Made by a program: the position numbers and the translations under genes. A stretch of 64,000 bases of DNA from a virus (taxonomy: Duplodnaviria > Heunggongvirae > Uroviricota > Caudoviricetes), in IMG/VR virus record IMGVR_UViG_2778261224_000007. One strand, written 5' to 3'. Position 1 is the first letter of the stretch. Each line of letters starts with the position of its first letter. The notes under the pieces are model-generated. The model had not been told where the DNA came from. It did not search any database and was given only the letters and a program-made list of their open reading frames with translations. Shown here piece after piece: positions 38,061 through 50,277 of this stretch.

Positions 38061-39092
38061 ATGTCCAATTTACTGACCGTACACCAAAATTTGCCTGCAT
38101 TACCGGTCGATGCAACGAGTGATGAGGTTCGCAAGAACCTGATGGACATGTTCAGGGATCGCCAGGCGTTTTCTGAGCATACCTGGAAAATGCTTCTGTC
38201 CGTTTGCCGGTCGTGGGCGGCATGGTGCAAGTTAAATAACCGGAAATGGTTTCCCGCAGAACCTGAAGATGTTCGCGATTATCTTCTATATCTTCAGGCG
38301 CGCGGTCTGGCAGTGAAAACTATCCAGCAACATTTGGGCCAGCTAAATATGCTTCATCGTCGGTCCGGGCTGCCACGACCAAGTGACAGCAATGCTGTTT
38401 CACTGGTCATGCGGCGGATCCGAAAAGAAAACGTTGATGCCGGTGAACGTGCAAAACAGGCACTGGCGTTCGAACGCACTGATTTCGACCAGGTTCGTTC
38501 ACTCATAGAAAATAGCGATCGCTGCCAGGATATACGTAATCTGGCATTTCTGGGGATTGCTTATAACACCCTGTTACGTATAGCCGAAATTGCCAGGATC
38601 AGGGTTAAAGATATCTCACGTACTGACGGTGGGAGAATGTTAATCCATATTGGCAGAACGAAAACGCTGGTTAGCACCGCAGGTGTAGAGAAGGCACTTA
38701 GCCTGGGGGTAACTAAACTGGTCGAGCGATGGATTTCCGTCTCTGGTGTGGCTGATGATCCGAATAACTACTTGTTTTGCCGGGTCAGAAAAAATGGTGT
38801 TGCCTCGCCATCATCCACCAGCCAGCTATCAACTCGCGCCCTGGAAGGGATTTTTGAAGCAACTCACCGATTGATTTACGGGGCTAAGGATGACTCTGGT
38901 CAGAGGTACCTGGCCTGGTCTGGACACAGTGCCCGTGTCGGAGCCGCGCGAGATATGGCCCGCGCCGGAGTTTCAATACCGGAGATCATGCAAGCTGGTG
39001 GCTGGACCAACGTAAATATTGTCATGAACTATATCCGTAACCTGGATAGTGAAACAGGGGCAATGGTGCGCCTGCTGGAAGATGGCGATTAG
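38061..39092 (+). CDS. cre: Cre site-specific tyrosine recombinase
   Basis: 343-aa protein recognised as P1 Cre (MSNLLTVHQNLPALPVDATSDEVRKNLMDMFRDRQAFSEHTWKMLLSVCRSWAAWCKLNNRKWFPAEPEDVRDYLLYLQARGLAVKTIQQHLGQLNMLHRRSGLPRPSDSNAVSLVMRRIRKENVDAGERAKQALAFERTDFDQVRSLIENSDRCQDIRNLAFLGIAYNTLLRIAEIARIRVKDISRTDGGRMLIHIGRTKTLVSTAGVEKALSLGVTKLVERWISVSGVADDPNNYLFCRVRKNGVASPSSTSQLSTRALEGIFEATHRLIYGAKDDSGQRYLAWSGHSARVGAARDMARAGVSIPEIMQAGGWTNVNIVMNYIRNLDSETGAMVRLLEDGD), adjacent to loxP. Confidence 0.98.
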   Translation: MSNLLTVHQNLPALPVDATSDEVRKNLMDMFRDRQAFSEHTWKMLLSVCRSWAAWCKLNNRKWFPAEPEDVRDYLLYLQARGLAVKTIQQHLGQLNMLHRRSGLPRPSDSNAVSLVMRRIRKENVDAGERAKQALAFERTDFDQVRSLIENSDRCQDIRNLAFLGIAYNTLLRIAEIARIRVKDISRTDGGRMLIHIGRTKTLVSTAGVEKALSLGVTKLVERWISVSGVADDPNNYLFCRVRKNGVASPSSTSQLSTRALEGIFEATHRLIYGAKDDSGQRYLAWSGHSARVGAARDMARAGVSIPEIMQAGGWTNVNIVMNYIRNLDSETGAMVRLLEDGD

Positions 39093-39585: not shown

Positions 39586-39602
39586 ATTGCTCTAATTGAT
39601 TG
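39586..39602 (+). promoter_or_regulatory. C1 operator overlapping the ref promoter (TATAAT at 39605-39610)
   Basis: ATTGCTCTAATTGATTG followed by TATAAT. Confidence 0.6.
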
Positions 39603-39700
39603 CTATAATTGAGCCGCAGTTTTTGTCAACTACGAAGACGTTGCCATTACTTAACTCCTTGACATCATTGGCGGCCATCAGGCCGCCTTTTTTTTGCCAT

Positions 39701-40261
39701 ATGAAAACAATCGAACAAAAAATTGAACAGCACCGTAAGTGGCAGAAGGCAGCCAGAGAACGAGCGATCGCTCGGCAACGGGAGAAGTTGGCTGATCCGG
39801 CCTGGCGAGAATCTCAATATCAGAAAATGCGGAATACTATCGACCGCCGTATCGCTAAACAGAAAGAGCGCCCACCAGCCAGCAAAACGCGGAAAAGCGC
39901 GGTAAAGATAAAATCTCGTGGCTTGAAGGGGCGAACACCGACAGCGGAGGAACGGAGCATCACCAATGCTCTTGGCGCTCTCCCCTGCATTGCCTGCTAC
40001 ATGCATGGAGTAATATCTGAAGAGGTATCTCTGCACCATATCTCCGGTCGTACCGCGCCGGGTTGTCACAAAAAGCAATTGCCCCTTTGTAGATGGCACC
40101 ACCAGCATGCAGCACCAGCTGAAGTAAGAGAAAAATTCCCCTGGCTGGTCCCTGTTCATGCTGATGGTGTGGTTGGAGGCAAGAAAGAATTCACCCTGCT
40201 GAACAAGTCAGAGATGGAGTTACTGGCTGACGCCTATGAGATGGCAAACATTATGCACTAA
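39701..40261 (+). CDS. ref: Ref HNH endonuclease (recombination enhancement function)
   Basis: 186 aa from ATG 39701 (MKTIEQKIEQ...); HNH-like Cys/His cluster (CIACYMHG...HH...CHKK...CRWHH). Confidence 0.85.
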   Translation: MKTIEQKIEQHRKWQKAARERAIARQREKLADPAWRESQYQKMRNTIDRRIAKQKERPPASKTRKSAVKIKSRGLKGRTPTAEERSITNALGALPCIACYMHGVISEEVSLHHISGRTAPGCHKKQLPLCRWHHQHAAPAEVREKFPWLVPVHADGVVGGKKEFTLLNKSEMELLADAYEMANIMH

Positions 40262-40296
40262 TAAATATATTATTTTTAATGATAAATGATTGACAA

Positions 40297-40320
40297 CTGA
40301 CAAGTGACTTCAGTCAGAAT
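40297..40320 (+). promoter_or_regulatory. candidate late promoter of mat
   Basis: CTGACAAGTGACTTCAGT-CAGAAT. Confidence 0.45.
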
Positions 40321-40450
40321 CATCACATGCCCGGTACGGATGGATCCCTTTTCAAATATTCCATGGACGGCACAGTCTGAGTACCGGGCGCTACCTTCAG
40401 TTGTATTGCTAAGCCGCCGCTGGTGGCTTTTCTTTTTTATAAGGGGCGCT

Positions 40451-41092
40451 ATGGATAAGAAAATATGCGTTGTTTCGATGAGCGTCGGCAAACCGGCGTC
40501 AATGACTGCCGCATGGATCAACAATGAGCTGATAATGGCTGAGCGGACCAGCTACCCTGAACGCCGCCGCGATATGGAACTCCAGCTGCTGCGCGAATTG
40601 CGAGAAAAAGAGGAAAAGGGTTTTATCGTGCTGGTGGAAGAGGAAAACAGCTTTATTACGGGTCGAGTTGGCCAGCGTGTAAGGTTGCGCGATCCCTTCA
40701 TGAACGGCAGGCCGGTACTAATTGAAGCAATGCAGATTTACAAGGAGCTGGAACGCCAGAAAGCGATCAAGTTACCGCGCAAAGAATCCGGCAAATACAT
40801 CCTCCACCAAAGCATCTTCGATTCCGAACACGACAAAAAAGGCGATGAATTTTTCAACATCAACTGGAGCGAAATAACGACAGAGCACGTTCTGTCGTTG
40901 TTATGCTGCTTCGCAACGGAATATAACAACGTTGCAAGCGCCGACTACATCAGGGCAATGGCTGGAGAAGTTGAGGCTCGCCAGGAACCATCGTTACTAA
41001 GCCCTCTGATTAACATAATTCGCGGAACCCAATGTCTAGCCGACAAGCGAGTTCCTCAAGGCTTACTTACCGGCAAAGAAAACTATTTATAA
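40451..41092 (+). CDS. mat: particle maturation protein Mat
   Basis: Start at ATG 40451 with AAGGGG RBS; position after ref as in P1. Confidence 0.7.
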   Translation: MDKKICVVSMSVGKPASMTAAWINNELIMAERTSYPERRRDMELQLLRELREKEEKGFIVLVEEENSFITGRVGQRVRLRDPFMNGRPVLIEAMQIYKELERQKAIKLPRKESGKYILHQSIFDSEHDKKGDEFFNINWSEITTEHVLSLLCCFATEYNNVASADYIRAMAGEVEARQEPSLLSPLINIIRGTQCLADKRVPQGLLTGKENYL

Positions 41093-41117
41093 TTAATTAC
41101 GTCAGTAGCCAATAGAG

Positions 41118-41153
41118 ATTTTTGTTGTGGAACAAAAATATATATTTTACAAT
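41118..41153 (+). promoter_or_regulatory. hairpin plus candidate sigma70 promoter (TTGTGG-17-TACAAT) for the inserted cassette
   Basis: ATTTTTGTT-GTGG-AACAAAAAT hairpin; -10 TACAAT at 41148-41153. Confidence 0.35.
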
Positions 41154-41182
41154 CTAGTAACTTTGGGTGGGGGATTATTACA

Positions 41183-42223
41183 ATGATGAATATTAAGCCG
41201 CTGAAAATTAGGAACAAGGTCATGAAGCCTCATAAAGCATTATTAAACCCTGACCTAACCGCAAGGAATGTACTTACATACAGTCATTGGGATTTTGTCG
41301 AACTCTGGTTAAAGCGAAACGAAAAAGATGAGGCTCTTTTTTATTGGGAGCAAGCAAAAGTATTTAATCAGGCGGCCAATGGTTTACCCAACCAATCAGC
41401 CCCACTTTTGCACTATTATTCATTCATGAATGCAGTAAAGGCGTTACTTTCATCTCGCAATATAAACTTCAAACAGCATCATGGTGTTGCTAGGGGTGAA
41501 AATGCAGCCCAAATTGATAACTTATCTGATATAAAAGTAAAAATAAAAAATGAGGGTATACTTCCGTCTTTTTCAAAATATATTGACGGCACCTCTCATG
41601 AGGGGGTGTACAATATAAAAAACCTTTTTTCTGGATTGCCATATATTCATCGTACATATTGCCTTACTTATGATGTAACTGATGATATATTTATTCCACT
41701 GATCGATGCTGAGTTCGTTTTGAATGAGTCAGACAATAGCCTGTTTTTCACTGCGATTTTATCCAAGGATTTTCGGTTCGACACAGTTTTCGACATTCTA
41801 CCGCCAGCGTTCGAATTGTTTGAAAGAGAAAAGTACAAAATAAAATCAGTAGAATCATTACTTGATTATAATGAAAATCAATCGTCCAACATGCCGCAAT
41901 TAACTGAATTTCATAAAAAAATAAGAAGAAATCTTTACTATATCAATGGCGCAGAGACTCTTTGGTATCTCAAACGTAAAAACAATCAATCTGAGCATAC
42001 TTCTGTTTCAATATCGCCATTGGTTATAACCCTAGCAGCTATGCATCGATTAAGTGAGCTATGTCGGTATGACCCACTTAAGCTAAGACAGTTACTAAAT
42101 GAAAAAGAAAACTGGATTATTGCTGAATTTATTCAACAATCTCCGTCACAGTTTATAGATGCAATTTCATCTGAAATTACTGGACACCAATTTCTTATCC
42201 CAAACGTAAGGTCTGCTTCTTAA
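41183..42223 (+). CDS. hypothetical protein, unrecognised family (cassette gene A)
   Basis: 346-aa ORF with GGTGGGGGA RBS; AT-rich; possible Rx6H (RKNNQSEH) motif near C-terminus; no nucleotide-binding motifs seen. Confidence 0.8.
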   Translation: MMNIKPLKIRNKVMKPHKALLNPDLTARNVLTYSHWDFVELWLKRNEKDEALFYWEQAKVFNQAANGLPNQSAPLLHYYSFMNAVKALLSSRNINFKQHHGVARGENAAQIDNLSDIKVKIKNEGILPSFSKYIDGTSHEGVYNIKNLFSGLPYIHRTYCLTYDVTDDIFIPLIDAEFVLNESDNSLFFTAILSKDFRFDTVFDILPPAFELFEREKYKIKSVESLLDYNENQSSNMPQLTEFHKKIRRNLYYINGAETLWYLKRKNNQSEHTSVSISPLVITLAAMHRLSELCRYDPLKLRQLLNEKENWIIAEFIQQSPSQFIDAISSEITGHQFLIPNVRSAS

Positions 42224-42732
42224 TGAATATATATATCGCATGCGCTTTAACTCATGTTCCAAGGGAAATTTTCCATGAGTACAGTAATTGGATTCACAGC
42301 CTTGCAAAAGGTCTATCTCAAAATAACAACGTAAAATATGCTTTGATAAATAGTGACCCAGAATTATCAAAGCGCCCTGAAAGTAACAAATCTAGACTTT
42401 GTTACATTTGGGACAGAGATATGGTTGAGAAATCTGATGTAATAATTGCAGAATGTAGTTTTCCATCAACAGGGCTAGGAATAGAGTTGCAGATTGCTGA
42501 ACAGAAGAACATTCCTGTAATCATCTGTTATAAAGATTATGGGATAAATAAAACTAAAACCATTGAATACGTGAATCCAGATGAGACTACCCATAATCTA
42601 CAAGTTGGCGAGGGTTTCATTTCTCATATGGTATTAGGACTACCAAACATCCTTGATGTCATATTATGTAAAGATATTGATAACACATGCAGGAAGCTAA
42701 AAATACTGTTAGATATGATTAACCATAATTAA
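42223..42732 (+). CDS. DNPH1/nucleoside 2-deoxyribosyltransferase-like protein (cassette gene B)
   Basis: 169 aa; N-terminal NIYIACAL and catalytic-motif-like DVIIAECSFPSTGLGIELQIAEQKNIPVI (compare DNPH1 DVVVAEVTQPSLGVGYELGRA); start overlaps gene A stop (TAATG). Confidence 0.8.
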   Translation: MNIYIACALTHVPREIFHEYSNWIHSLAKGLSQNNNVKYALINSDPELSKRPESNKSRLCYIWDRDMVEKSDVIIAECSFPSTGLGIELQIAEQKNIPVIICYKDYGINKTKTIEYVNPDETTHNLQVGEGFISHMVLGLPNILDVILCKDIDNTCRKLKILLDMINHN

Positions 42733-42762
42733 AAATTAACACCCACTTAAGATGTCTAAACC

Positions 42763-42782
42763 AGCCCGGTATTAACCGGGCT
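42763..42782. terminator. hairpin between convergent genes
   Basis: AGCCCGG-TATTAA-CCGGGCT. Confidence 0.4.
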
Positions 42783-42790
42783 AGACAAAC

Positions 42791-43039
42791 TTAATCAGCA
42801 TTCAGGAGCAATGCATTATCTATGATGATTTGCTCCCATTCTTCGAATGCCCGGTCGCGGACGCCCTGGGGAACGCTGTTAGTTTTGAAATCGACGACCG
42901 TACGCCATTTCCCGTCCGGACGGTACATGCGCAGAGCTTTACTTCCCCCCTCCCTGCGCACCTCAACGTTATGCTTATCAGCAAACTCTTGTAATGCTCG
43001 TAGCGTCCCATGCTTTACTGTGTAGTATCGCTTTTTCAA
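42791..43039 (-). CDS. lxc: C1 corepressor/modulator Lxc (Bof)
   Basis: 82-aa ORF downstream of ulx-darB, size and position as P1 lxc; TTG start overlapping ulx stop. Confidence 0.7.
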   Translation of the reverse strand: MKKRYYTVKHGTLRALQEFADKHNVEVRREGGSKALRMYRPDGKWRTVVDFKTNSVPQGVRDRAFEEWEQIIIDNALLLNAD

Positions 43040-43476
43040 GTTTTCTCTCCAGCCTGTGCTAAGGCTTCAACTTCCAAATCGTAAGACTCAAACTCATAGT
43101 CCTGGTCGTCAACCTCTTCAGGCACTGGCAGTAAATGCCAGGCTGAGTATATCTGACCATTATCAAAACGCTCCTGGCTGTAGAGCGTCGCGGCTATGAG
43201 CGTCAGCGCCGGGCGGTCATAACGGTAAATTTTGCGAACGTCACGGTCAACGAGACGACCGAAATTACCATAACCGCGCTCCAGTAATAATTTTTTAATT
43301 TCCGGCCAGTATGGACCATAGCTGCGGTACAGACGGGGATTTTTCAGTAATCGCCCGCGTAGCCCTGACAGGAAGAAATCAACGTATTCGTCTTCTGTCT
43401 TTCCTAACAACGCTGTACGGAGTACCGCCTCAAGATATGTTTTATTCGGTTTTATTGTATCAGATAGTGTGGCCAT
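43036..43476 (-). CDS. ulx: Ulx (hypothetical, upstream of lxc)
   Basis: 146-aa ORF between darB and lxc. Confidence 0.6.
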   Translation of the reverse strand: MATLSDTIKPNKTYLEAVLRTALLGKTEDEYVDFFLSGLRGRLLKNPRLYRSYGPYWPEIKKLLLERGYGNFGRLVDRDVRKIYRYDRPALTLIAATLYSQERFDNGQIYSAWHLLPVPEEVDDQDYEFESYDLEVEALAQAGEKT

Positions 43477-43509
43477 ATTATGCGACGCCCGGCGAACCGG
43501 GCGCTCCTG

Positions 43510-46500
43510 TTATGCGTATTGTTGGATGACGGCCAGAACGTCCGCCACGTTGTGTTTTGTCTCGATAATCCACCAGTTACCCGGGAAATCGCTGTTCTTC
43601 GCCTTCGCTGGCAGCCAGCGAGCGCCGAATTTCGCCTTGATTGCGTCTTTCGCACGGAAAAGAACGCCTTTCATGCCTGAGGCTTCCTGAAGCCCAAATA
43701 CCTCGCCAGCGGCGAATTTTGGTGCGTACATCATCTTCAGGTCGGCGGTGGATACGCGATAATTCAGACCAAGAGACTGAGCTATGCTGGTGGCATCACC
43801 CTGTATTGATGATAACTCTTCTTGTTTCTCGTTTCTGGCGGCAATTTCTTCCTCCGTGATGTTGCCAAGGGCCAGGTTTATCCGATCAGCGTCGGCCTGT
43901 TTCTCTTCATCGGTGCGCCCGGCAAGAACCGTGTTAATTCTCTGCAATATCTCCACATGATTCTTGCGCATGCTGAGCAATTCCGGCGTAACCTCGTTAA
44001 GATCCACCAGCCCAAGGATGGCAAGGTCGGAAAACATTGATACCAGGTTGTAGGTCATGCGATAGCTGAGTTGGCCATAGGCTGATGGCAACTGCACCGC
44101 ATCCATTTGATAGGCATCCATAAATTTAGAGCCGTCGTTTACGACATCCGCAATTGCAGGTGTGATTTTCCCTGTGGTGGCGGCCTCCCTGATTGCTGTT
44201 ACCCACGATTGAGTCAGTGCGGCGACTGCATGATTCAGATTGGCTTCCCGTTCTGCTGCGATGCGCGCGTTTGCTGCGTCCATTGCCTGCTTGATCTCGG
44301 CTTTATTGCTGTAAATGCCAATGGTGCCAAACTGTGCTGTGGTGATCTCATAATCTGACGCCCGGAACTCATGGGTACCGAAAATGGCATTGGTGACCTC
44401 AAGTTCAGAATCCCCGTTACGAGTAGCCCCCTGGCTTGTTTTCTCCGGCATTTTTGCGATCGCATCCGCTATTTTCTCCTGAATTGCTTCAGGGGATAGC
44501 GTATCTCCGTATGACGCGATTACATCGCCATAATTGGAGCCAAACAATTCAACCAGGAATGTTTCTGCCGAACGGATCTGGCGGTTATTCCCTTCCGACA
44601 TCATACCAAGCACCCATTTTGCAATTGACGACTTCAGCGCGCCGTCACGGCGATCCGGGTAAACCGCATGCTTCAGTGGGTCCGTATAGGTACCAATAAA
44701 ATCAATGCTATAGCCTGACTCTGTAGTCTGAACGCCGTATGAGTCAGTGATTTTGATCATGCCGCGCTGCTGGAAACGGTAGAAATCGTCACAGGAAATG
44801 ATGTCGTTAATCCCGGCGATGGAGACGCCACCACTGATTTTCTGCATAACAGCATCTTCATCGGGAGTTACATCCACCTGTTTATCCAGCGTCTTCACAT
44901 CCCAGTTACCCGATTTGGTGCCTCTTAAGGTAAAGATGATCTCCACGTCTGCGCGCTGGCTGTCGAAGTCCAGCGACTTAATGCGAACGATATCACCGGC
45001 ACAATCGTAGTATTGGCCTACACGCCATGAGCGATCGCCGATAACAAGGAACTCATTCGCATGGTTAACCAGATCAGGATCAACATCCAGAATGCCTTTA
45101 TTTATTGCATCCTCCACCAGCGGGCGCAGGCGTTTGATATCCGTCGCGGCCTTCTGAGTACGGTTCAATAATTTCTCATAGCGGGAGATGGCCTGAGAGA
45201 TATTAGCCTTGCGCTGAATGGCGCTTTTCAACGACGCGCGATACTGTGCTAACAACATACGGTCTGTGTGATGGACACTCCCCCAGCGGGCCTTCCAGTC
45301 TGCGTTATCCGCTGCCTTGGCCATTGCCGCCTGTTTGAATTTAGCTACCTCGGCGGTGGTCTTTTCAAGTTCCGCTTTGCTTCGCTCTAATTCAGCGGTA
45401 AGTACCTCCACATCCTCGCCAGCTGCGTGCTGCGCCTTGATGTAGTTCTGAAGGTCGATAGTAGCCTGTTCTTTCTGGCGAGCGCGTTTCGCAGCTTTCG
45501 CCTTATCCATTTGAACCTGCATCATTGCCAGACGTTCGCCGTCATCCTTCGCGGTATACATCTGCATTTCGATCATGTCATTGGCGTCGGCGTTCTCCAT
45601 TTCTGACTTATCTGAACGGAGGATATCGGAGATCCAGCCTGCTTTACGCTTCAGCGTCTTCAGTCGGTATTCATCGAAAGACCCCTTGCCGCAGTAGTAG
45701 TGAACGCGAACGCTTGCACGGTTGGAACCAACTCGGGCACCGCGACCGTTACGCTGTGCGATACTGGCTGGTGTCCACGGCAACGTCAGGTGGTGGATAT
45801 CCGTCGTTCCTCGATGCAGGTTGATACCCACCTCTGCCTTTTTGTTGCAGATGATGATCGGAGTCCGGCCCTCCTGGAAGTCGGCTGCAATCTTTTCCAG
45901 ACCGCCCAACGACATTTCATTTTGCTGCGCGATATAGGCGTCATACAGAGCCATTTGCTCGTTGTATTTCGCTATCTGTGCATCTGTTGGTTCATCCGGT
46001 AGCTCTTTCGGCGGTTTAACCGCTTTCAGTTTCTTACCGGTTTTACCTGCCTCGGCAACCGTCTGAGCATTCAGGATCCCCACCTTTGAAGGTTCAAGGT
46101 TTAGAGCATTGCAGATAATGCGCTTGAGCTTCTGGTGCTGCGTTTTTTCATCGGTGAAGATGATTTGCTTACCTTCCGGGAAAAACTCCTTCAGCGTGGC
46201 GATCAGCTTCGCGTATTTCGGCGTAACGGGGTGAGTTACGGTCTGTTCGTCAATGCCAAACCTGGCCAGGCGCTTATTCACTTCCTGCTCGAACGCTTCC
46301 GGAACCTGCAACTGAATAAACTCGCCCTTATCTATCAGGGAGTATTGCGATTGCTGCGTGATTGAATCATCACTGTCGTCGTCTTCGCTGGTGGCTTGTT
46401 TAGGCAAACTGTCCGCCAGCTGCTGCACCGCATCGGCGTACTCCGGCAGGAAACGATAGGTGATCCGGCGATAGTACAGGTCCATGTCAGTACATACGCG

Positions 46501-49500
46501 GTCCATATCCCTGATTATTGAGAAGATCGGACGGGCTTTCTCGTGCTCAATCACGCCATCTTCATTGACCGAGGTCGTTACGCCATTGTTGGCTTTGGCC
46601 GCCGCTTCCGCCTGCTGACGCAATTCTTCATACGCCGCCAGTTGTTCTTCAGTAAGTGGTGCATCCTGCTGGTGTTCGTCCAGCTCCGGGATCTCCACGG
46701 TATCCTTAACGTCTTCCGCCGTTTTAAGCGTTACCCAGCGATGGAATATACCGCGCAGCGCATCAAGGTTTTCAAAGCCCACCAGCGCCATTTTTTCTTC
46801 AACTTCACCGCTAATTTTCTGTACCGTTTCCAGCCTAGTCTTGCCGAAGAATTTAACGAAGTCATCAGGACCGTAGATCCCCATGTTCTGCCAGTATTCC
46901 TTCGGCAGAACATGAGAAAGCATGTTGTATGCATCGATCGGGGTGTTAACGACTGGCGTTGCAGTCAGGAGAACCGGCCCGCGCCCGCCATTCTTTTTCA
47001 TCAGGTACGCGTTTTTAATTGCCATATCTCGCGCCGATTGCGCCACCGCGCTGGTGGGCAGATAGGCCAGTTGTGACGCTTCGCGACCATTTTTATAGCT
47101 ATTGCGGTAGTTGTGACCTTCGTCAGCGATCACACTATCGAAGCCCATATCCTCAAAGTACGGATACTTCTCTGCTTTTTCGGTGCCGGTATCTGAATAC
47201 TCCGACAATACCCGGCGACGCGCGGCCTCTTTGCGGTGGGAGTCGGAGTCCATTGCGCTGGCTACGCGTCCGGCGGCAACGAAGTCATAAAGCATATCCT
47301 GTGCATGCTCATCTACGGTGTCATCACGTAGCGGAATGCGGGCGTATTGTTCTTTGGTAAACACGACTGCACGGTAATTTGAGTGCGGGATCGCGTTCAT
47401 CCGCGCCGTGATAGTGGCTTCATCTGCCAGCTTAAGAGCATCGCGCATAACTGGAGTGCCATCAGTACCAAGAACAGGTTTACCGTTCTCATCGAGCACC
47501 GGCACCTGGCGAATCTGATCGCCATCCATCAGCACATCAAGACCGACGAACAGGTAGTTACTGAATGCCTCTTCACTCAGGAATTCTTTTGCTTCGTAAT
47601 ACCAGTTTTCCAGCACTGATTTAGGCACTACATACGCAGTACGGGTGGAGCGACCGTTCTCATAGTTGAACGCCTCAAGCGCCAGCGCGGTCGTGGTTTT
47701 ACCCAGCCCGGTGCCGAAGCCCAGGATGCCGCGCCCATCTTCGGACAGTCGGCGCACCTCGCTATTCTGGTAATCAAATGGCTGTCGCTTACCGCTTAAT
47801 CCCTTCAACCCAAGCGGATCGCCAGAGTGTTCATACGGGATATTGCTATTGAACACATCGTTGTATTTGGCAACCAGCTCATCGTAGCGATCGTGCGTCT
47901 TGATCCACTTATTGAACTGGTCCTCAAGCAGTGCCATCTGCTCGCGGTAGCCGTTCGCCGTCGCGCTATCTTTGCCACCGATACGCGCACCATTGAGATA
48001 CTTTTCCAGCTGTGCCGGGAACCCGGTCGCGTTTTCACCTGATTTACGGTCCCACTCGTAGCGGATCTCGCCTGTTTCTTTATCCTTGCGCTGGACGACA
48101 CCGTATCGGTGCCCGACGAACAGACCATCACCACCGTGATAGGTGTCAGAAACCATTTCGTCGCCTTCCAGCTGCACTGACTGCACATAGCGCAGATCCG
48201 GATAGCCGTTTTCCTGCAAAAATTCCAGAATGACGGAACGGTCGAACCAACGGCTATTGAGCTTAAAGCGGATATTCTCTGCTGGCGTCTTGATGCGCTT
48301 CTCTTCGATCGCTGCCAGCTGATTAAGGACGTTGTTTTTTACTGGACCGTCGGGGAGTGTGGCAAGGAATTCCTGTTTTGGAGCCACTATCTCGTTAATG
48401 TCGCCGCTGGTGGCGCGGGCGAACGGAACAATCCCGCCATACGGTGAAACCGCAATACCAGGGGTGCTGGCCAATAAATTAAGCAACTCTTCATCACTGG
48501 CTGGCAGTTCGCCGGTAAACGCAAGGCGGAAATCATCGAGCTGGATTGGATCGCGGGTAAGATCGCTATAGAGATAACGCAGGGTGTCCTGATAGCTGGT
48601 GGAGTCATAACTGGCGCTGGAATCATGCGTAACCAGCTTTCCTGTCAGCTCGTCAGAAATAGTGCCATCCAGCTTAATTGCACCACGGAAAGCAAACCAG
48701 GCGCGCGCACCGCTCCCCGATAATTTCGCTATCGGACCGCGACCGGGGTTACCAAAACGGTCAATCTCTGCCTGCAAACGGGATACCAGAGAAAGGCGCT
48801 GCTGTTCGATTTGTTCAGCACTATGCCCGGCGGCCTTCATGTCCTGATATTCAATTAACATCCGGCCAATCATCGCTCCGCGATACAAGCGTTCACGGTA
48901 TTTTTCAGGCTGGCTGTTAATCCAGTCCACCAGCTGCACCATATCGTCGCTGATTGATGTGGTGTACTTATCGCGGACATTTGCCATCTGGGTAAATGTC
49001 ATACCGAGACGGCCTTCTGTTGTAGTCAGGTTACGCTGAAGAGCCTCCCAGCTATCCGCACCATAACTGGCAACCTCAATCTTCAGCTCCTTCCCGGCAT
49101 CAGCTTCAATCCAGCGACCACCAGCATATTTTTGCCATACGCCATTAATCAGGCGCATTTCCCCTTCATCAACAACATCTGCGGTCGGTGACGGTTCAGC
49201 CATATCGAGCAAAGACCAGTCGATACGACTTTCGAAACGATGAATCAGCTTCGCTTTAAGAGCCTGGTTATCAATCTGCCCGTCGGCACGAACCTCAATA
49301 CGCCCCTGGAATCCCTTCTCCTGAGTGCCATGAACAAACCGGCGGCCGTCCTTTTCAAACCACTTGCCAGAAATAAACGTTGGCCAAAGCACATTTGCCG
49401 ATTCAAGAGTGTCTTCATCCACCAGGGGGATTTTCTCAGCCATCTCCGCCGGATGTTTGCGCATCAGCACCACGTCAACGACCGTACTGGTCCCGTTTGC

Positions 49501-50277
49501 GTCAAAAGTACCGGTAGGCAAGCGGTGGGCACCAAGAAATTCAGCTTTCCGTGATAGGCGCAGGCGTAACCGCTTCATGTTTGAACCTGAAACAATGGAC
49601 GGCGGCACAATCACGCACATGAATCCGCCTGGCTTTATCTTGTCCAGCATGCGGAGCATGAAGTAAGAACCCATGTCCGTTTCTTCTGCGTAAGGCTTAT
49701 CGATGTTGCGTGTGTTATCACGACCACCGAACGGAACGTTACCCACAACATGGTCGAATGAATCGTTAGGCGTGCTTACAGCCAGTTGTTCGAACGGGGA
49801 AATCTGTACGCTGTCTTCCGGATGTAACAGCTGGTTTATACGACCGGAAACACTGCTGATCTCAGTCGCGGTCATCACCGTACCAACCGGTTTTGTCTCA
49901 TTAAAAACGCCGGTGCCCGCCGATGGTTCCAGAGTGTTACCTACGTCCGCGCCGTAGAGCTTCATGATCTCCCAGACACCTTCAGCGATCGGCTTTGGTG
50001 TGTAATATTCGGAGACGGACCCGCCAATGCCACCTTCACCGGTGTACCCAGCCAGGATCTGGCGCTGTTCATCTGTCAGTGTCGCGCCGTCCACCAGCGA
50101 ATTAAGCAAATCTATCGCCTTCTGATTCGCCTCACGGCGCAGTCGGTCATAGCTTTTGCCTTCCACCTTTTCCACGCCGTATTTAATCGGCGCTCGGTGA
50201 GATGTTATTGCCCTAATGTATTTCAATATTTCGCTGACACTTGAACAGCGAAACACCCCCATAGATAGCTTGTTCAT
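43510..50277 (-). CDS. darB: DarB antirestriction protein (giant methyltransferase/helicase-like virion protein)
   Basis: 2255-aa ORF; N-terminal adenine-MTase-like motif (GNVPFG), Walker A (GFGTGLGKTTTALA), DExH box (VIADEGHNYRN). Confidence 0.85.
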   Translation of the reverse strand: MNKLSMGVFRCSSVSEILKYIRAITSHRAPIKYGVEKVEGKSYDRLRREANQKAIDLLNSLVDGATLTDEQRQILAGYTGEGGIGGSVSEYYTPKPIAEGVWEIMKLYGADVGNTLEPSAGTGVFNETKPVGTVMTATEISSVSGRINQLLHPEDSVQISPFEQLAVSTPNDSFDHVVGNVPFGGRDNTRNIDKPYAEETDMGSYFMLRMLDKIKPGGFMCVIVPPSIVSGSNMKRLRLRLSRKAEFLGAHRLPTGTFDANGTSTVVDVVLMRKHPAEMAEKIPLVDEDTLESANVLWPTFISGKWFEKDGRRFVHGTQEKGFQGRIEVRADGQIDNQALKAKLIHRFESRIDWSLLDMAEPSPTADVVDEGEMRLINGVWQKYAGGRWIEADAGKELKIEVASYGADSWEALQRNLTTTEGRLGMTFTQMANVRDKYTTSISDDMVQLVDWINSQPEKYRERLYRGAMIGRMLIEYQDMKAAGHSAEQIEQQRLSLVSRLQAEIDRFGNPGRGPIAKLSGSGARAWFAFRGAIKLDGTISDELTGKLVTHDSSASYDSTSYQDTLRYLYSDLTRDPIQLDDFRLAFTGELPASDEELLNLLASTPGIAVSPYGGIVPFARATSGDINEIVAPKQEFLATLPDGPVKNNVLNQLAAIEEKRIKTPAENIRFKLNSRWFDRSVILEFLQENGYPDLRYVQSVQLEGDEMVSDTYHGGDGLFVGHRYGVVQRKDKETGEIRYEWDRKSGENATGFPAQLEKYLNGARIGGKDSATANGYREQMALLEDQFNKWIKTHDRYDELVAKYNDVFNSNIPYEHSGDPLGLKGLSGKRQPFDYQNSEVRRLSEDGRGILGFGTGLGKTTTALALEAFNYENGRSTRTAYVVPKSVLENWYYEAKEFLSEEAFSNYLFVGLDVLMDGDQIRQVPVLDENGKPVLGTDGTPVMRDALKLADEATITARMNAIPHSNYRAVVFTKEQYARIPLRDDTVDEHAQDMLYDFVAAGRVASAMDSDSHRKEAARRRVLSEYSDTGTEKAEKYPYFEDMGFDSVIADEGHNYRNSYKNGREASQLAYLPTSAVAQSARDMAIKNAYLMKKNGGRGPVLLTATPVVNTPIDAYNMLSHVLPKEYWQNMGIYGPDDFVKFFGKTRLETVQKISGEVEEKMALVGFENLDALRGIFHRWVTLKTAEDVKDTVEIPELDEHQQDAPLTEEQLAAYEELRQQAEAAAKANNGVTTSVNEDGVIEHEKARPIFSIIRDMDRVCTDMDLYYRRITYRFLPEYADAVQQLADSLPKQATSEDDDSDDSITQQSQYSLIDKGEFIQLQVPEAFEQEVNKRLARFGIDEQTVTHPVTPKYAKLIATLKEFFPEGKQIIFTDEKTQHQKLKRIICNALNLEPSKVGILNAQTVAEAGKTGKKLKAVKPPKELPDEPTDAQIAKYNEQMALYDAYIAQQNEMSLGGLEKIAADFQEGRTPIIICNKKAEVGINLHRGTTDIHHLTLPWTPASIAQRNGRGARVGSNRASVRVHYYCGKGSFDEYRLKTLKRKAGWISDILRSDKSEMENADANDMIEMQMYTAKDDGERLAMMQVQMDKAKAAKRARQKEQATIDLQNYIKAQHAAGEDVEVLTAELERSKAELEKTTAEVAKFKQAAMAKAADNADWKARWGSVHHTDRMLLAQYRASLKSAIQRKANISQAISRYEKLLNRTQKAATDIKRLRPLVEDAINKGILDVDPDLVNHANEFLVIGDRSWRVGQYYDCAGDIVRIKSLDFDSQRADVEIIFTLRGTKSGNWDVKTLDKQVDVTPDEDAVMQKISGGVSIAGINDIISCDDFYRFQQRGMIKITDSYGVQTTESGYSIDFIGTYTDPLKHAVYPDRRDGALKSSIAKWVLGMMSEGNNRQIRSAETFLVELFGSNYGDVIASYGDTLSPEAIQEKIADAIAKMPEKTSQGATRNGDSELEVTNAIFGTHEFRASDYEITTAQFGTIGIYSNKAEIKQAMDAANARIAAEREANLNHAVAALTQSWVTAIREAATTGKITPAIADVVNDGSKFMDAYQMDAVQLPSAYGQLSYRMTYNLVSMFSDLAILGLVDLNEVTPELLSMRKNHVEILQRINTVLAGRTDEEKQADADRINLALGNITEEEIAARNEKQEELSSIQGDATSIAQSLGLNYRVSTADLKMMYAPKFAAGEVFGLQEASGMKGVLFRAKDAIKAKFGARWLPAKAKNSDFPGNWWIIETKHNVADVLAVIQQYA

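Follow-up and report, generated by a model that had tools for sequence, protein, structure and literature searches.

The window considered here is the whole stretch of 64,000 nucleotides recorded in IMG/VR as IMGVR_UViG_2778261224_000007, a P1-like phage-plasmid of the Caudoviricetes in which cre (38061-39092), ref, mat, lxc, ulx and darB follow one another in the order of P1, and whose segment 40304-50277 is 100% identical to a 99.6-kb Escherichia coli plasmid. Between mat and lxc the window carries a two-gene cassette, here called YaaC-B, composed of a gene of the YaaC family (gene A) and of a gene for a predicted nucleotide N-glycosidase with the fold of DNPH1, MilB and the nucleoside deoxyribosyltransferases (NDTs) (gene B). 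These are the only two open reading frames (ORFs) of the interval, they lie on the same strand, and the stop codon of gene A (TAA, 42221-42223) and the start codon of gene B (ATG, 42223-42225) overlap as TAATG. Judging from sequence comparison, predicted structures and genomic context, the cassette is a strong candidate for a new defence system. The features of the locus are collected in Table 1.

Table 1. Features of the mat-lxc interval and its flanks (window coordinates).
Feature	Coordinates	Strand	Remarks
mat, maturation control gene	40340..41092	+	left slot boundary; start set by P1 homology
5' intergenic region of the cassette	41093..41182	+	weak candidate promoter; purine-rich GGGGGA stretch before the gene A start
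gene A, YaaC family (PF14175)	41183..42223	+	346-aa ORF; likely true start 41186
gene B, DNPH1/MilB/NDT fold (DrHyd superfamily), predicted nucleotide N-glycosidase	42223..42732	+	169 aa
3' intergenic region with GC-rich hairpin, between the convergent gene B and lxc	42733..42790	.	from hairpin folding
lxc, modulator of the C1 repressor	42791..43039	-	right slot boundary
ulx	43036-43476		beyond lxc; from the ORF list
darB	43510-50277		beyond lxc; from the ORF list

By BLAST, the window matches P1, RCS47 and SJ46 as far as the mat stop codon (41092), and again from the lxc stop codon (42791) onward; the segment 41093-42790 is therefore exactly the one replaced, and it equals the span delimited in the original prediction, a reading of the DNA letters that preceded this analysis. 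The mat gene of the window is 94-97% identical to that of P1, P7 and RCS47, and from 42791 on the lxc side is 98-99% identical to P1, RCS47 and SJ46. The description of the pair as AT-rich and translationally coupled was equally accurate: the GC content over 41000-42800 is 0.335-0.38 versus 0.48-0.53 in mat and darB, the cassette being the lowest-GC kilobase of the whole window, and the two genes share the TAATG overlap. In P1 this interval holds the EcoP1I res-mod genes, as the original prediction had stated, and the view of the cassette as foreign cargo in the res-mod slot of P1 is supported.

As regards regulatory signals, the 3' intergenic region contains a hairpin with its core at 42763-42782 (AGCCCGGT-ATTA-ACCGGGCT), with folding energies of -21.2 kcal/mol on the + strand (z -6.5 against shuffles) and -25.4 kcal/mol on the - strand (z -4.8); since no T-run follows it, it is not called by the terminator scan. 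The other cargos of the slot possess their own, differing hairpin at the same place before lxc. Hairpins had been noted on both sides of the cassette, and only the 3' one stands, the 5' intergenic region folding no more strongly than shuffled sequence (z 0.05). The proposal of a promoter belonging to the cassette is likewise unsupported: the promoter scan called no site upstream of gene A, so that the hexamers TTGTGG (41125-41130) and TACAAT (41148-41153), separated by 17 nt, remain a by-eye candidate only. The cassette may be transcribed by read-through from the mat promoters. As predicted, no C1-operator-like site is found nearby, the interval scanned being 39602-50207, and no Rfam family matches within 40000-44000.

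The product of gene B yields an AlphaFold2 model of high quality (predicted local distance difference test, pLDDT, 96.9), for which the Foldseek ranking is led by human DNPH1, by BcmB (a CMP N-glycosidase) and by NDTs, and a profile built from 81 gene B homologues retrieves the Rcl/DNPH1 chains of the PDB (E 2.4e-5). An hhalign comparison with human DNPH1, the sequence of which was validated against PDB 8qhr, pairs D64 with D80, S82 with S98 and E88 with E104. Across the family, D64 and E88, the Glu of the GIELQ motif, are present in 81/81 sequences, as is S/T134, whereas Y4 is kept in 80/81 and S82 in 79/81. The relation to DNPH1 and the NDTs, together with the catalytic Glu, had been proposed from the motifs alone, and both now rest on the structural ranking, the PDB match and the invariance of E88. 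Y4 probably corresponds to the catalytic Tyr Y24 of human DNPH1, judged by its position in strand 1 rather than by an explicit alignment. Similarly, S/T134 lies in a stretch (ISHMVLG) that resembles LSAMIRG around S128 of DNPH1, which together with S98 makes up the two phosphate-binding serines of the human enzyme; this region falls outside the hhalign alignment. Because the fold, the Tyr/Asp/Glu set and the phosphate-binding Ser are conserved, gene B is predicted to encode a catalytically competent 5'-phosphate-binding N-glycosidase of the DNPH1/MilB type and not a degenerate binding domain.

Relative to DNPH1 and MilB/BcmB, the gene B protein has an extra, strongly conserved segment (residues 105-141), with Y116, N118-P119-D120, L126-Q127, G129 and G131. 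The family is small: when 1.84 billion representatives were searched exhaustively, 34 clusters reached E<=1e-30 and 107 reached E<=1e-10. A sister family (P0293-P0332) consists of proteins of 250-565 aa with a full-length B-like N-terminal domain that shares with B the motifs PSTG.GQELE and GG.S.M..GNP; when their C-terminal extensions were scanned for partner domains no Pfam match was obtained, and by eye these extensions are low-complexity or coiled-coil.

Gene A had been presented as an unknown protein with no recognisable motif beyond a possible HEPN-like one, and this description has to be abandoned. Its product matches the Pfam family YaaC (PF14175) over profile positions 18-307 of 307 (E 1.5e-45, 156.4 bits vs a cut-off of 27), and RefSeq annotates it as a 'YaaC family protein'. 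Translation probably starts at the second ATG (41186), giving 345 aa, since the first ATG is lost (M1 to I) in a 96%-identical allele and both the RefSeq entry and the 345-aa cluster representative begin at the second. The AlphaFold2 model (pLDDT 93.7) displays an HEPN-type helical core formed by residues 35-91 and 279-333, between which an alpha/beta domain is inserted (about residues 92-278), and its best structural match is AF0298. At the sequence level the YaaC profile matched none of the PDB chains at E<=10, and literature searches for YaaC or PF14175 found nothing relevant.

From a biochemical perspective, the residues of interest in YaaC are a set of histidines and arginines. The invariant positions include H100, H156, R157, H288, S291, R295 and Y296, and all the conserved core residues are common to the YaaC clade with a gene B partner and to the clade without it. 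R289 and R295 are invariant where helix-3 ends, and the invariant histidines of both clades, H288 and, in the insert, H100 and H156, are all N-terminal to these two. In HEPN proteins the canonical Rx4-6H motif sits where helix-3 ends, and for the AF0298-type and AbiV-type members an alternative active site has been proposed, made of a His of the insert and a basic residue of helix-3 (PMC3710099). The combination seen in YaaC (H100, H156, H288, R157, R289 and R295) resembles this second pattern, and an alternative HEPN active site may exist in the family. The HEPN-like Rx6H suggested earlier for gene A, RKNNQSEH (265-272), was rejected: it belongs to a variable loop, is not conserved and contains an insertion (N267-N268) private to the protein of the window.

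The association between the two genes was explored by a scan of the YaaC alignment, limited to one genome per species, which provided 80 loci, to which the pairing counts add loci fetched earlier. The genomes belong to Proteobacteria, Bacteroidota, Planctomycetota, Cyanobacteria, Firmicutes, Nitrospirota and Spirochaetota, with one archaeal metagenome-assembled genome. In the close YaaC clade a gene B homologue is found at position +1 on the same strand in all 45 loci, with gaps of -20 to +54 nt, whereas none of the 39 loci of the distant clade, hereafter the solo clade, has one. When neighbours were clustered, gene B turned out to be the sole conserved neighbour, always at +1 (38/38 non-redundant loci), and, conversely, YaaC is located directly upstream of 4/4 independently chosen B homologues. 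In one metagenomic variant (L004:5410-8489 and L005:1-3065) YaaC-B is preceded, at a distance of 23 nt, by a gene of about 490 aa belonging to PF06189, a 5'-nucleotidase family. The arrangement, which does not recur at the other loci, could represent a three-gene form that hints at nucleotide chemistry.

Of 5,426 complete E. coli genomes, 109 (about 2%) carry the cassette, most of them from clinical and livestock isolates, and it also occurs in 85 PLSDB plasmids. It is intact in 106 of the 109 carriers, so that truncated copies are uninformative as to any toxin-antitoxin dependency; one record (H50) has a frameshifted YaaC that stems from a 1-nt difference in a long-read assembly and may be an error. 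A tblastn search of both proteins against 50,697 phage genomes found no homologue, the PHROGs scan of both gave no match, and that of NCBIfam gave nothing useful.

Outside the P1-like elements, one lambdoid prophage has the pair next to DNA methylases and a MORC-like ATPase, and a Yersinia P2-like prophage has it between genes S and V, a position for cargo. It also occurs on a conjugative element, flanked by a TraG-like coupling protein and a relaxase, directly after a CBASS-like module of Patatin and CD-NTase (L106:612-4040). At this last locus Patatin, CD-NTase, YaaC and B are all on one strand, and their adjacency may reflect either a functional linkage or a mere island. Furthermore, the pair shares an E. 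coli island bounded by an integrase with BrxR, JetD-like, McrA-like and Dpd genes, adjoins pglZ/brxL of a BREX system at one locus, and adjoins a Gabija-like ATPase and a UvrD helicase in Bradyrhizobium. Among the 148 neighbours of paired loci, PADLOC and Pfam recognise type I restriction-modification (R-M) genes, GajA, AriA, PbeA, PDC-M19/M45, mad3, Mrr, OLD-TOPRIM and DUF2971. In qualitative terms, YaaC-B thus has the general attributes of a defence system, that is a conserved operon, a patchy and mobile spread, and a location in defence islands and prophage hotspots.

The genes of the solo clade adjoin HsdM, HsdS, Mrr or EcoRI genes. At one locus (L043), for example, a solo YaaC (10004-11038) stands between the type I genes hsdM (8367-10001) and hsdS (11035-12327), and the neighbouring ORFs abut or overlap. 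A location inside R-M operons is classic for HEPN genes of the PrrC/Abi type. At two Bacillus-type loci (L075:6188-11035 and L085:6228-10990), solo YaaC is placed directly downstream of glmM-glmS, as identified from ORF sizes and PGM_PMM, GATase and SIS matches. The solo YaaC of L075 precedes three ORFs (273, 718 and 534 aa) that are similar in size to Tn7-like tnsABC, and it might be cargo at an attTn7-type site.

The survey of slot contents in P1-like elements recommended by the original prediction has been carried out, and the mat-lxc slot proved to be polymorphic. It is empty in RCS47, and this vacancy, like the variability of the slot, implies that the cassette does not belong to the dar system. 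In SJ46 the slot contains a 373-aa RelA/SpoT protein with a match to the PADLOC family PDC-S33 (7e-87), and in PLSDB plasmids a SIR2 protein (PDC-S25/ThsA-like), a DUF2971 protein (PDC-S31), a KilAC/Icd pair, a GNAT protein (L101:988-1596) or an EAL-domain protein (L102:845-1534), the last followed by about 1 kb without annotation (L102:1535-2528). The GNAT and EAL-domain proteins have no PADLOC match and may be additional unclassified cargo of the hotspot. The EcoP1I system, which fills the slot in P1, is a proven defence. From its family and size, the occupant in SJ46 appears to be CapRel(SJ46), a system of this phage whose anti-phage action has been proven by experiment (PMC9712102). The mat-lxc slot is therefore a polymorphic hotspot, the other occupants of which include validated or candidate defence genes.

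The left edge of the slot deserves a separate remark. The 3' end of mat (window 41032-41092) is variable, the homology with RCS47 stopping about 60 nt before the mat stop codon. In addition, the mat gene linked to a 96% cassette allele (L098:711-1500) is only 84% identical to that of the window, while lxc-ulx is still 98% identical. This suggests that recombination breakpoints fall inside mat. Elsewhere in the window, tRNA genes are found at 8359-8434, 8437-8512 and 9944-10019 (Asn-GTT, Thr-TGT and a tRNA with a CAT anticodon), a kind of set that P1-type phages carry.

Selection was examined by comparing the cassette of the window with one E. coli allele that is 96.1% identical. Gene B has a ratio of non-synonymous to synonymous substitution rates (dN/dS) of 0.05, and gene A one of 0.26. 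The 20 gene A substitutions all lie outside the HEPN helices, and 12 of them cluster in two stretches of the insert, residues 212-238 and 263-274 (P about 4e-5, binomial, post hoc). Across the whole YaaC family, residues 196-240 are the most variable, and the helices and the motifs IHRT and MHRLSELCRY the most conserved.

The swapped-in module of the original prediction, for which defence, counter-defence and nucleotide-pool roles had been offered side by side, is supported as such, and of the three options the slot and island context favours defence. Counter-defence is disfavoured because tblastn found no homologue among the 50,697 phage genomes, and plain nucleotide-pool metabolism because the distribution is patchy, mobile and in defence islands. 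We consider it somewhat probable that YaaC-B is a self-contained, horizontally mobile anti-phage module, or more broadly a module of conflict between mobile genetic elements, carried by the P1-like prophage-plasmid as cargo of its mat-lxc hotspot, with gene B as the effector and YaaC as its partner. The conservation of fold and residues, the obligate pairing, the mobility, the defence context and the purifying selection are direct observations, whereas phage protection, the substrate of gene B, the contact between A and B and the division into sensor and effector are inferred.

According to the mechanism proposed, gene B would act as a conserved enzymatic effector of the DNPH1/MilB type, cleaving the base from a substrate of the (deoxy)nucleoside 5'-phosphate kind, which might be deoxynucleoside monophosphates (dNMPs), modified dNMPs specific to phages, or a related nucleotide, for instance one derived from adenine or NAD. 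YaaC would form a complex with gene B and control it, their translational coupling favouring matched amounts. Its His/Arg core may bind a nucleotide or nucleic acid, or cleave RNA, and its fast-evolving inserted domain would recognise the infection cue. Precedents for such an effector come from retron Ec86, in which an NDT-like effector depletes adenine derivatives, and from AbiJ-NTD fusions carrying an NDT domain; more generally, conflict systems are known to draw enzymes from the DrHyd superfamily. A narrower version of the same idea would make gene B a selective hydrolase of phage-modified pyrimidine nucleotides, such as 5-hydroxymethyl-dCMP or 5-hydroxymethyl-dUMP, instead of a suicide enzyme that depletes nucleotides in bulk. 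It is put forward because the closest characterised structural relatives, MilB (hydroxymethyl-CMP) and DNPH1 (5-hydroxymethyl-dUMP), share this preference. The result would be a non-abortive immunity at the metabolite level, in which phages with modified DNA are starved of precursor, the host pools are spared, and YaaC gates or targets gene B; we regard this version as quite improbable.

Several points weigh against the defence interpretation with gene B as effector. No family of PADLOC-DB 2.0.0 matches gene A or gene B at E<=1, and the pairing consequently has no precedent there; the original prediction, which could assign it to no named system, was right within this database. The score of gene B against Pfam PF05014 (Nuc_deoxyrib_tr) is 22.1 bits, under the gathering threshold of 28.8, some of its homologues carrying a precomputed match to this family, and the substrate is not readable from the sequence. 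The canonical Rx4-6H is absent from YaaC, no conserved His being found 4-6 residues after R289 or R295. The existence of the solo clade means that YaaC can work without B, which fits YaaC as the effector at least equally well. Finally, the association with defence islands was judged qualitatively, with many generic PADLOC models (helicases, ATPases, methylases) among the matches, and some paired loci, for instance in Aeromonas, have no obvious defence neighbours.

The role of the solo clade leads to an alternative that we hold to be unlikely, in which the two parts are exchanged: YaaC would be an HEPN-type RNase effector with a site of the AF0298/AbiV style, and B a nucleotide sensor or regulator that binds or hydrolyses a nucleotide of infection (dNMPs from host-DNA breakdown, or modified dNMPs) and so licenses or restrains YaaC. 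Such an exchange would agree with the presence of solo YaaC in or near R-M operons, like classic Abi-type HEPN genes, with the invariant His/Arg residues common to the solo and paired clades, and with AF0298 as best structural match, a member of the HEPN group for which an alternative His of the helix-2/helix-3 insert has been proposed. Moreover, recent preprints report that nucleotides from DNA breakdown trigger the HEPN effector ApeA and a PUA-Cal-HAD filament. The complete catalytic set and the stronger constraint of gene B (dN/dS 0.05) are nevertheless what is usual for an effector, the fast-evolving segment sits in YaaC, as expected of a sensor, and YaaC has no canonical Rx4-6H. A toxin-antitoxin-like module that stabilises its carrier by addiction, with no specific anti-phage role, seems to us decidedly less probable. 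Two small, translationally coupled genes on mobile elements, almost never disrupted, would suit such a module, and other cargo of the slot, namely R-M and the fused toxin-antitoxin CapRel, is also addictive; P1-like plasmids, however, already possess a dedicated addiction system, phd-doc, the pair occurs frequently in chromosomal islands and next to bona fide defence systems, and a 345-aa YaaC, one domain of which is hypervariable, does not resemble a simple antitoxin. Toxin-antitoxin and defence roles can, besides, coexist.

The metabolic and viral readings of the pair fare worse. YaaC-B could in principle be an ordinary nucleotide salvage or detoxification pair that hitch-hikes on mobile elements and serves the metabolism of the host, for instance by removing damaged or modified dNMPs in the manner of eukaryotic DNPH1. 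In its favour, the functions of DNPH1, MilB and the NDTs are metabolic, and in one variant the PF06189 gene is directly upstream. We find this very improbable in view of the patchy spread (out of 1.84 billion representatives, only 34 clusters at E<=1e-30), the foreign base composition of the cassette, its repeated occurrence near defence genes as cargo of prophages, plasmids or islands, the obligate coupling of B to an HEPN-fold protein with a hypervariable domain, and the lack of any metabolic gene recurring as a neighbour. A benefit to the phage itself, with gene B destroying the nucleotide signals of host immunity or remodelling pools for P1, is hardly to be expected. Although the cassette adjoins lxc-ulx-darB, with the anti-restriction genes ulx and darB, and although DrHyd and related Rossmannoid enzymes can process messengers derived from NAD or ADP-ribose (ADPr), neither homologues in the phage genomes nor a PHROG match were found. 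The pair resides mostly in bacterial chromosomes and islands far from phage genes, the slot is variable and empty in RCS47, and, according to a survey of the NAD/ADPr systems of viruses, DrHyd domains are under-represented there. A retron-type organisation was also considered and rejected, there being two ORFs only, no Rfam match within 40000-44000 and no conserved third neighbour.

Compared with systems already described, gene B is similar to DNPH1/Rcl, a 2'-deoxynucleoside 5'-phosphate N-hydrolase and 5-hydroxymethyl-dUMP hydrolase, and to MilB/BcmB, N-glycosidases of CMP and hydroxymethyl-CMP, in fold and active-site residues, but identity is only 15-18%, and whereas DNPH1 and MilB/BcmB are stand-alone metabolic or biosynthetic enzymes, gene B always occurs with YaaC, on mobile elements or in defence islands. 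Retron Ec86 (Retron-Eco1) and the AbiJ-NTD1-NDT fusions share with the proposed mechanism an NDT-superfamily domain acting as a toxic or nucleotide-depleting effector restrained by its partner. Unlike Ec86, the cassette has neither a reverse transcriptase (RT) gene nor a non-coding RNA recognisable by Rfam in it or beside it. The partner is here a HEPN-fold YaaC and not an RT-msDNA, as in Ec86, or the AbiJ N-terminal domain, and gene B is a single-domain protein of 169 aa whereas the Ec86 effector is bilobed. Literature searches combining DNPH1 with defence or HEPN, and those on DrHyd, returned general background only.

On the side of gene A, the nearest HEPN proteins are those of the AF0298/UPF0332 and AbiV types (HEPN-T clade; MNT-HEPN), from which YaaC is distinguished by an insert of about 185 residues, against at most about 60 in the families described (see PMC3710099 for a description of HEPN). 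Unlike MNT-HEPN, YaaC has no nucleotidyltransferase partner, nor does it match any solved HEPN at the sequence level. The 2013 HEPN census does not mention YaaC. Bacillus subtilis YaaC, the founding member of PF14175, belongs to the same family as gene A, with a full-length match. To our knowledge, no function has been assigned to the B. subtilis protein, which, like the solo clade, has no NDT-like partner, and for this reason no function can be transferred from it to gene A. CapRel(SJ46), EcoP1I res-mod and the SIR2 and DUF2971 proteins occupy the identical mat-lxc position, each with its own hairpin, but their proteins and mechanisms are unrelated to those of YaaC-B. The domains are thus of known kinds, while the pairing of YaaC with a DNPH1-like enzyme is undescribed within PADLOC 2.0 and the literature searched.

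If the cassette proves to be protective, YaaC-B would be a new two-gene bacterial immune system and would provide the first function for the widespread YaaC family (PF14175). It would also be the second architecture, after retron Ec86, to use a glycosidase of the NDT/DNPH1 type in immunity, and the complete DNPH1-like active site of gene B points to nucleoside-monophosphate chemistry. In the same case, the mat-lxc slot of P1-like phage-plasmids would be established as a site where defence cargo is swapped. Since the cassette is present in about 2% of the complete genomes of E. coli, it may affect the susceptibility of these strains to phages, therapeutic ones included.

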